Source of the DNA: Eledone cirrhosa
Taxonomy: Eukaryota
Length of the DNA: 64,000 nt
Reading direction: 5' to 3'
Assembly (NCBI GenBank): GCA_964016885.1
Contig: CAXHJY010000664.1
Span: 1 to 64,000 of the forward strand
The position numbers were made by a program, and so were the translations under genes. Below, piece after piece: positions 51,382-52,181 of this stretch. Position 1 is the first letter of the stretch; each line of letters starts with the position of its first letter. The notes beneath the pieces were generated by a model. The model ran no database searches. It saw nothing but the letters and a program-made list of their open reading frames with translations, and was not told where the DNA came from.

Positions 51382-51720
51382 CTCTTTTCCAACTATATCA
51401 AGCGTTTAACTAATATATCATCATTGTATAGTATTGTTCTTCTGAGTTAGACGGAGAGAAGAGAGACAGACAGACAGACAGACTGATAGACAGACACACA
51501 GATGGAGGATAGCACACACACGCACGCACCTACTAATACACAATCATATATATATGAAGAAGGTGAGTTTTATTGTAGCACAATAAAGCAATGCAAATAT
51601 CGGATAAGTAGCACTCAACAGTTTATAGGACTGGAGTATAAATAATATAAAATAAATATAAATAATAAATAAAATAAATATAAATAATATAAAATCAAAA
51701 GATGGTTAAAAGAGTTCCAT

Positions 51721-51793
51721 ATATTCTATTATGCGCATTTCAAAAACAAATATCATCATCGGATAATATTTGCGTTCTCATCAGATAAAATAT
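51721..51793 (-). ncRNA. Minimal type-I hammerhead ribozyme (left arm of palindrome B)
   Basis: atattttat-CTGATGA-gaacgcaaatattatc...gatgatatttgttttt-GAAA-T-GCGC-A-TA-atagaatat. Confidence 0.75.
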
Positions 51794-51850
51794 GTTGATT
51801 TAACACTTCACTGCTCGCAAGTGCTTTTTAAGCTTCATATCATGTCTCCC

Positions 51851-51918
51851 TATTTTATCTGATGAGAACGCAAATATCATCCGATGATATTTGTTTTTGA
51901 AATGCGCATAATAAAATA
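51851..51918 (+). ncRNA. Minimal type-I hammerhead ribozyme (right arm of palindrome B)
   Basis: tattttat-CTGATGA-gaac-gcaaatatcat(ccg)atgatatttgt-tttt-GAAA-T-GCGC-A-TA-ataaaata. Confidence 0.8.
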
Positions 51919-51955
51919 CATGGAACTCTTTTAACCATCTTTTGATTTTATATTA

Positions 51956-52052
51956 TTGGCAGTATCGGTAGAGGGTTGGACGCCATGTTTTCTAGCAAAT
52001 ACCAGTACATTACTGGTACTTTATTTTATCGACCCCGTAAGGATGAAAGGCA
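51956..52052. mobile_element. Rearranged SINE: head (+) fused to inverted body (-)
   Basis: tggcagtatcggtagagggttggacgccatg followed by ttactggtactttattttatcgaccccgtaaggatgaaaggc. Confidence 0.75.
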
Positions 52053-52181
52053 TTTTGAATTAATATTTTGAATTAATATTAATAACTCCAGAAAACTTTC
52101 ATTGTTGAGTGCTTCTAATCTATTGTAAAACTATATTCATTTATTAATCAATGAACCTTGTTTAACTTTTGGTTATATATA

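Follow-up and report, generated by a model that had tools for sequence, protein, structure and literature searches.

A one-tailed palindrome with opposite-strand hammerhead motifs in Eledone cirrhosa DNA, probably built from two truncated Penelope-type ends

Introduction

How do two hammerhead ribozyme motifs come to lie on opposite strands, head to head, within one short insertion, and do they delimit an element of its own kind or merely ride in the stump of an ordinary one? The question is raised by palindrome B, which lies in a 64,000-nt window (the whole stretch of Eledone cirrhosa DNA analyzed here) of AT-rich, microsatellite-rich, animal-type DNA that also holds a second palindrome, A. 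A first-pass annotation made from the sequence alone had read both as twin ribozyme cassettes bounded by their hammerheads. For Penelope-like elements (PLEs), the origin of inverted halves and the cutting of hammerheads in vivo are left open in the accessible texts of PMC3846280, PMC8557442 and PMC11167929. The structure of B is ordinary for PLE-rich genomes, and its value is that of a test object: B argues cleanly against simple fold-back, and with an abundant family, tail hairpins and a possible excess of junctions at the cut site both questions would become addressable from an assembly alone. The features discussed below are collected in Table 1.

Table 1. Positions of palindrome B, its parts and flanks, and the related palindrome A (coordinates of the window)
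Feature	Position	Strand	Description
B, whole insertion	51569-51957		389 bp; TT common to both ends
B left (long) arm	51683-51792	-	5'-truncated at the 5' strand of stem I
B right (short, tail-less) arm	51851-51957	+	stops ~3 nt short of the expected ACTCC hairpin start
B spacer	51793-51850	+	58 nt; family sequence that leads into the hammerhead of the right arm without a break
Sole inversion junction of B	51790-51792	.	3-nt overlap of left arm and family upstream sequence
AT-rich tandem expansion of the arm-tail linker	51638-51682	-	~20-nt unit, about three copies
Left-arm tail of B	51569-51637	-	69 nt; ACTC/GAGT hairpin, TGTTGAGTGCT at 51610-51620, 7-bp terminal hairpin 51569-51587
Type I hammerhead motif, right arm	51851-51918	+	stem I 51851-58/51911-18; core 51859-65, 51899-902
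Right-arm motif, further parts		+	stem II 51866-98; palindromic stem III 51902-09; predicted cut 51910|51911
Type I hammerhead motif, left arm	51722-51792	-	predicted cut 51730|51729; private G.U in stem I
Likely first target-site half	51562-51569	+	resembles bases 5' of GGCAGTATCGG in other SINE-like repeat copies
Rest of SINE-like head, apparent second target-site half	51958-51997	+	9 head copies in the window, including that at B
Flanks of B expected to meet in a rejoined SINE-like head			GGTGAGTT and GGCAG
Downstream piece of the SINE-like repeat	51994-52052	-	inverted relative to the head; 4-nt overlap
Segment C	52053-52155	+	tail-bearing end (third related family) lacking both hammerhead and mirror half; 6-bp terminal hairpin 52136-52155
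Palindrome A	40565-40916	.	short arm left, ends ~1 nt before the ACTCC equivalent; tail right (40850-40916) with 6-bp end hairpin

Results

The two arms of B align with 104 matches, 3 mismatches and one 3-nt indel (97% identity), and all three mismatches are A/G on one strand or the other, too small a number to be ascribed to RNA editing. B is one copy of an abundant repeat. Reads and contigs from 4 of the 23 listed runs were aligned to the 249-bp core only (51696-51944), on which records numbered 2,156 (contigs) in run X1, 37 in X5, 11 in X6 and 3,380 (reads) in X21, depth not being equivalent to copy number; X5 and X6 bear other organism labels, and X21 is a RAD-seq DNA run. Depth over the spacer (51840-48) is as high as in the arms in runs X1 and X21. 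Nine among the 24 of 2,223 pieces listed run from the spacer through stem I into the right arm (seven from 51818-51825 and two from 51790). Records that reach 51790 from the spacer side continue into other, partly common upstream sequence, for at least 30 nt in 224 X21 reads (agreement 0.83), 23 X1 contigs and 2 records of X6, and a search allowing up to 3 mismatches found this upstream sequence nowhere in the window. Records of the left arm at 51790-92 continue as the reverse complement of the spacer (4 X1 contigs, 1 in X6). The spacer is thus family sequence continuous with the right arm, so that B has one junction and only its left arm starts at stem I. The inner boundary had earlier been placed exactly at stem I, which holds for the mirror symmetry of B and for the start of the left arm; the right arm, however, continues through the spacer, and the mirror symmetry of A extends 5 nt beyond stem I.

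Both arms of B carry G at 51760/51883, where most of the aligned depth has C, which points to one source lineage, while the T of C51726T is carried by nearly all aligned records. The spacer of B differs from most X21 reads at 51804, 51813, 51814, 51817 and 51824, and B may therefore belong to a minor subfamily. Loose ends of other copies place the ACTCCA motif ~30 nt past 51697, so that the linker is shorter there, and a loose end at 51942 (run X21) shows the B-type continuation beyond the right arm. In B and C the linker before ACTCCAG (51920-51957 and 51630-51637) resembles a branch point with pyrimidine tract and CAG, the last being CAC in A. Drosophila virilis Penelope has a 3' splice site at stem I; the same was considered here and dropped, as no AG precedes stem I in A or B.

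Five other junctions are listed for the family and lie, in right-arm coordinates, at 51922/51916, at 51921/51911 (with 3 extra letters), at 51885/51885 (with a 16-nt hairpin between), at 51879/51803 and at 51794/51911. None of the five matches that of B, and none of their ten arm ends is at stem I; in this small sample the breakpoints are not tied to stem I, an outcome that the first-pass annotation had named as counting against it, and they may not be fully random. Four of these junctions are single contigs with a short side of 23-24 nt and the fifth consists of three DNA reads with two starts, and some could be later deletions. Two of the ten listed ends fall at 51911, the first base past the predicted cut, with a binomial P of 0.003 for the exact base and 0.04 for a 4-nt window, values that are rough, post hoc and drawn from a filtered list. 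These ends are an indirect hint of self-cleavage at the predicted site. An end at 51790-94 is present in B and in one listed junction, and a mixed loose-end consensus of X6 can be read as a third; an RNA start at 51790-94 would be a guess. In X21, 1,141 read ends pile up at 51901; we do not take them for a sign of cleavage, since this is a DNA run and the reads, which have two variants in common, probably represent one locus.

Each arm of B contains the hammerhead core CUGAUGA...GAAA with an AUA cleavage triplet, and the general core CUGANGA/GAAA/NUH is present in all four motifs, two in A and two in B. Stem I of B is TATTTTAT/ATAAAATA (8 bp), with a left-arm version, ATAGAATA, that has one G.U pair. 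Stem II is paired at 13 of 14 positions, 2-3 of those pairs being G.U, and its loop is 3 nt longer in the left arm than in the right; a base-by-base alignment with stem II of A is impossible. Stem III is a perfect palindrome in both, ATGCGCAT in B and ATATATAT in A. A structural descriptor of the core and stems has three matches in the window (both arms of B and the right motif of A) and none in 100 block shuffles, and the left motif of A fails it at stem II, where two pairs are lost. The annotation had described arms of ~108 bp with a hammerhead in each, a stem I and core as in A, a stem II that is well paired yet unlike that of A, and different stem III palindromes, and all of this stands.

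Folding and family searches gave a less distinct picture. Fold z-scores are weak (-1.56 and -1.32 in B, -0.27 and -0.81 in A), and the minimum-energy folds of the motifs are without stem III. Rfam yielded no match at the gathering threshold over the whole window; at E values up to 10, 51500-52200 gave 11 subthreshold matches, no hammerhead among them, which we read as chance matches to a long hairpin. Loss of the G10.1-C11.1 closing pair lowers hammerhead activity. The pair that closes stem II is G.U in B and A-U in A, not G10.1-C11.1, and C11.1 (at 51742) is carried by 249 of 706 X21 reads and by ~2% of the X1 depth; the accessible text of PMC4209133 calls G10.1-C11.1 highly conserved in PLE hammerheads. 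A transcript across both arms of B is predicted to form a hairpin of >100 bp (-146 or -165 kcal/mol) with the ribozyme unfolded. Because this read-through hairpin takes the ribozyme apart, a working twin cassette at the B locus appears unlikely from the modeling. In two-strand folding, dimers are favored by 7-12 kcal/mol, via pairing of stems I/II or the core and not via helix III.

The variation within the family speaks more directly to the fold. Among the 40 of 70 variant rows listed, 13 change stems I or II, and pairing is kept in all 13. These rows represent nine distinct changes, of which five fall on Watson-Crick pairs, each being a compatible transition (5/5, ~1 in 32 by chance). Core changes make up two of the same 40 listed rows, both at N7, and 12 of the 40 lie in the 58-nt spacer. 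As the stem variants are all one-sided, they indicate constraint, not formal covariation. The earlier suggestion of selection on the fold is borne out to this extent, and the aligned variants support the view that the ribozyme fold was under constraint in the family.

Outside the arms, the tails connect B with A and with segment C. The motif TGTTGAGTGCT has exactly three sites in the window with one mismatch allowed, at 40862 (+), 52103 (+) and 51610-20 (-), and tails A, B and C have in common ACTCCA...TGTTGAGTGCT....ATC. The motif had been reported outward of both arms of B and of A; all three sites are real, and those in A and in the left tail of B are as described, but the site at 52084-52111 belongs to segment C. 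The tail of C is 75% identical to the left tail of B and 71% to that of A. Segment C was rejected as a continuation of the right arm, given 75% versus 97% arm identity and 97 bp of SINE-like repeat between. If C is counted in B, the best flank repeat is TATTGTA (7 nt), which does not abut the left end. The element end of segment C has no separate fixing point. A and B are related families, as had been proposed.

All three tails end in a 6-7-bp Watson-Crick hairpin, from 51-52 to 67-71 nt past ACTCC, with differing sequences (stems TTTATTG/CAATAAA, TTGTTG/CAACAA and TTCATT/AATGAA). Such a hairpin arose in 2.6%, 7.4% and 8.3% of shuffled tails (5,000 trials; product 1.6e-4), with a position window chosen post hoc. 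Whole-tail fold z-scores are -0.76, -2.32 and 0.08. A hairpin of ACTC/GAGT plus CA(G)/(C)TG is present in the minimum-energy folds of A and B and absent in C. A conserved ORF through the tail was rejected, there being no frame common to the three tails, and the conserved tail motif consequently looks like an RNA signal.

The arm asymmetry of A is that of B with sides swapped. In both, the short arm falls 1-3 nt short of ACTCC and the tail reaches 67-69 nt past it; measured from the AUG inside the hammerhead core, the short-arm end lies 96 nt (B) or 99 nt (A) downstream. The spacer of A (40696-40735) is a tandem duplication of a 19-nt AT-rich unit. About 1 kb from A, a long (ACTACAACCAATACA)-like threonine-rich tandem array (41380-42030) ends in a SINE-like piece.

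Judged from its flanks, B appears to interrupt a SINE-like head. On a matrix built from the 8 other head copies, 5 of which have a GGTGRRTT-like start, the 10-mer that ends at 51569 ranks among the best 0.09% in the window, and the one directly before 51958 scores -3.5. The match of the left flank to the head has a P of ~0.04 over the 44 positions scanned, and lower given its abutment on the tail end. The label "SINE-like" rests on copy number and on a B-box-like motif in other copies; ARAGORN found no tRNA. B shows no clear target-site duplication, only an overlap of 2 nt (TT) or 6 nt (TTATTG). GIY-YIG homing nucleases leave a 2-nt 3' overhang, which the shared TT would fit. In A, where 40556-64/40919-27 is a candidate 9-bp duplication, 153 of 2,430 AT-rich control sites do equally well, and the greater length of the candidate would mean that the stagger is not fixed.

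The stretch at 51958-52155 runs from the SINE-like head through the inverted SINE piece to segment C, the last two lying head to head. A chimeric two-armed insertion, in which SINE RNA was the template of one arm, could account for it; the right flank does not resume the SINE. A cluster of SINE-like pieces, some in short tandem duplication, lies at 17468-17867.

Discussion

B consists of two 5'-truncated, hammerhead-bearing ends of an abundant repeat set head to head, and we consider it probable that it was built on site by a Penelope-type endonuclease/reverse transcriptase. Each target strand would be nicked by this enzyme and would prime one cDNA. The first cDNA would start at the end of the terminal hairpin of the tail and stop at stem I; the second would start where the ACTC hairpin has its foot, ~70 nt upstream, and extend 58 nt past the ribozyme, and the two cDNA ends would then join through the 3-nt microhomology. 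The hammerhead would have been selected in the source RNA, cutting as a dimer or with protein help, and would be a passenger in the stump that is B. The arms, the single junction, the one-sided tail, the abundance and the constraint on the fold are observed in B, and the two-ended priming is what we infer.

The possession of private sequence by each arm bears most on the choice between this and other origins. Because each arm of B holds sequence absent from the other, neither is a simple copy of its partner; the right arm owns the 58 nt and the left arm owns the tail, a division that speaks for two independent primings and against a simple fold-back. In fold-back, or self-priming, a nucleic acid folds at its 3' end and is copied, and a later template jump or trimming would yield the unequal outer ends. 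Arkhipova et al. 2013 explain palindromic head-to-head junctions by self-priming on an antisense template (PMC3846280, accessible text), the short arms of A and B both stop at a hairpin foot where a polymerase might stall on single-stranded cDNA, and one listed junction is symmetric within stem II (51755/51885). Fold-back would however give the spacer-owning arm the longer or an equal outer end, and the spacer of B is on the tail-less arm, so that an extra step is needed; we regard this origin as unlikely. The same private sequences weigh against the duplication of a single truncated copy, later inverted by DNA repair or fork fold-back independently of retrotransposition. The surroundings are AT-rich, repeat-dense and rearranged (an inverted SINE piece, a slippage tract), as such an event might have them, yet the mirror symmetry takes in no flanking host DNA, and the two end points, measured from ACTCC, are the same in A and B, which makes a repair origin very hard to credit.

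That leaves the reading closest to the first-pass annotation, a fixed palindromic non-autonomous element bounded by its hammerheads and copied as a unit with the ribozymes as functional ends. The left arm of B does start exactly at stem I, the symmetry of A ends 5 nt away, 64 kb hold two examples of the layout, and a small subfamily with the junction of B may exist, contigs being fragmented. Against this, B has one junction only, upstream of which the family continues for at least 30 nt; the other listed junctions and their arm ends all lie elsewhere, in a small filtered sample; and none among the 24 of 2,223 pieces listed crosses the junction of B, a weak point in that the window locus is also unlisted. 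The read-through RNA is, moreover, predicted to bury the ribozyme in its hairpin of >100 bp. We hold a fixed element to be improbable and give up the hammerhead-bounded twin cassette. Nor is an undescribed class of element called for, because head-to-head truncated ends with opposite-strand hammerheads are described in the accessible texts of PMC4209133, PMC8557442 and PMC3846280. The accompanying suggestion of a reproducible mechanism with a Penelope connection was right in spirit, except that the mechanism is not bounded by the hammerheads.

The layout of B (head-to-head, one-tailed, with opposite-strand hammerheads) is already in print for PLEs. In Schistosoma, opposite-strand hammerhead pairs 100-700 bp apart have been ascribed to truncated PLEs (PMC4209133, 2014, accessible text). 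Insertions of EN+ PLEs resemble B in their head-to-head truncated ends, short junction overlap, tail at one end, hammerhead in the terminal repeat and AT-rich surroundings, as far as PMC8557442 and PMC3846280 describe them; unlike these, B is without an ORF, a second direct pLTR and a clear target-site duplication, and the tails of A, B and C measure 67-71 nt versus the 30-40 bp given for PLE insertions in the accessible literature. The hammerheads of Schistosoma and other metazoan PLEs in the accessible text of PMC4209133 are likewise type I, with a long helix II, a small palindromic helix III and many divergent families per genome. Relative to those described there, helix I of B is longer (8 bp), helix II has 14 bp, the best register leaves no extra base between A9 and 10.1, and helix II is closed by G.U or A-U. 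We assign B to no named PLE clade, as the search for an ORF found none.

The closest parallel for the two end points comes from Poseidon of Anolis (Frangieh et al. 2024, PMC11167929), whose accessible text describes an enzyme, a predicted dimer, that cleaves and extends both target strands. The tail is delimited there by two start sites of reverse transcription, of which the main one lies in an AC-rich stem-loop 111-118 nt past the ORF start at stem II. A and B share with it the two tail-delimiting end points, the tail stem-loop and a first end point ~100 nt past the AUG in the hammerhead core. In Poseidon, this AUG opens the ORF and the tail is coding, whereas here all frames close in at least one family and the enzyme is not identified. 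The anole hammerhead cut only with protein present, and the accessible text reports no RNA ends at the cut site (PMC11167929).

The source RNA may come from an autonomous element, as its pLTR, or from a non-coding dependant of the retrozyme type; the two are about as likely, and we lean slightly toward the non-coding source because no reading frame is conserved. The absence of a conserved reading frame from the stretch between hammerhead and tail, unlike in anole and rotifer pLTRs, also counts against a PLE-type origin. Metazoan non-LTR retrozymes, as portrayed in the accessible texts of PMC7229834 and Li et al. 2026 (10.64898/2026.07.22.740005), are similarly non-coding, high-copy and low-GC, with a type I hammerhead, a weak palindromic helix III and kinship to PLE pLTRs. 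They are defined there, however, by head-to-tail tandem monomers (150-450 bp) and circular RNA, whereas B is head to head and shorter than any retrozyme monomer seen in these texts; no head-to-tail tandem monomers are present at the B locus.

A bolder reading, which we entertain tentatively and think rather doubtful as a whole, takes A, B and C for three families of one non-coding RNA that parasitizes Penelope enzymes. The 70-nt tail would be a structured start signal of two hairpins, conserved in fold, that fixes two reverse-transcription start sites; every insertion would arise by two-ended priming; and the inner junctions would record RNA 5' ends, including the hammerhead cut at 51911. If this were true, a genome-wide map of junctions would be a fossil read-out of hammerhead cleavage in the germ line, an in vivo signal that was absent in the anole element as described in the accessible text of PMC11167929. 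Searches of open-licence main texts turned up no paper on cephalopod PLE tails, covarying tail hairpins or PLE two-ended priming; the accessible literature does give 31 recently active Penelope-like families in Octopus vulgaris.

Searches of the window and databases

The proposed link to PLEs rests on architecture, because no reverse transcriptase or GIY-YIG match was found in the 119 of 499 stop-to-stop window frames scanned (low-complexity frames excluded), and the autonomous Penelope-like partner that the annotation had envisaged did not emerge from these frames. Searches with the hammerhead pattern gave no match in public metagenomes or prokaryote genomes. One locus in viral contigs, in AT-rich giant-virus DNA, was dismissed as chance: it lacks a stem III palindrome and has no evident stem II. 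The tail pattern had no match in metagenomes or viral contigs. An inverted-repeat search of the whole window was dominated by microsatellites, and at 19768-23200 very long low-complexity arrays in opposite orientation form a 1.3-kb inverted repeat of 77%. A weak DUF6451 match at 7633-8091 (+; E 2.6e-5, below cut-off) is possibly a retroelement remnant. Three near-identical short frames, at 33130-33300 (-), 55143-55313 (+) and 55517-55687 (+), match a C2H2 zinc finger (E ~5e-5, below the curated cut-off) and are probably a dispersed repeat or gene fragments.
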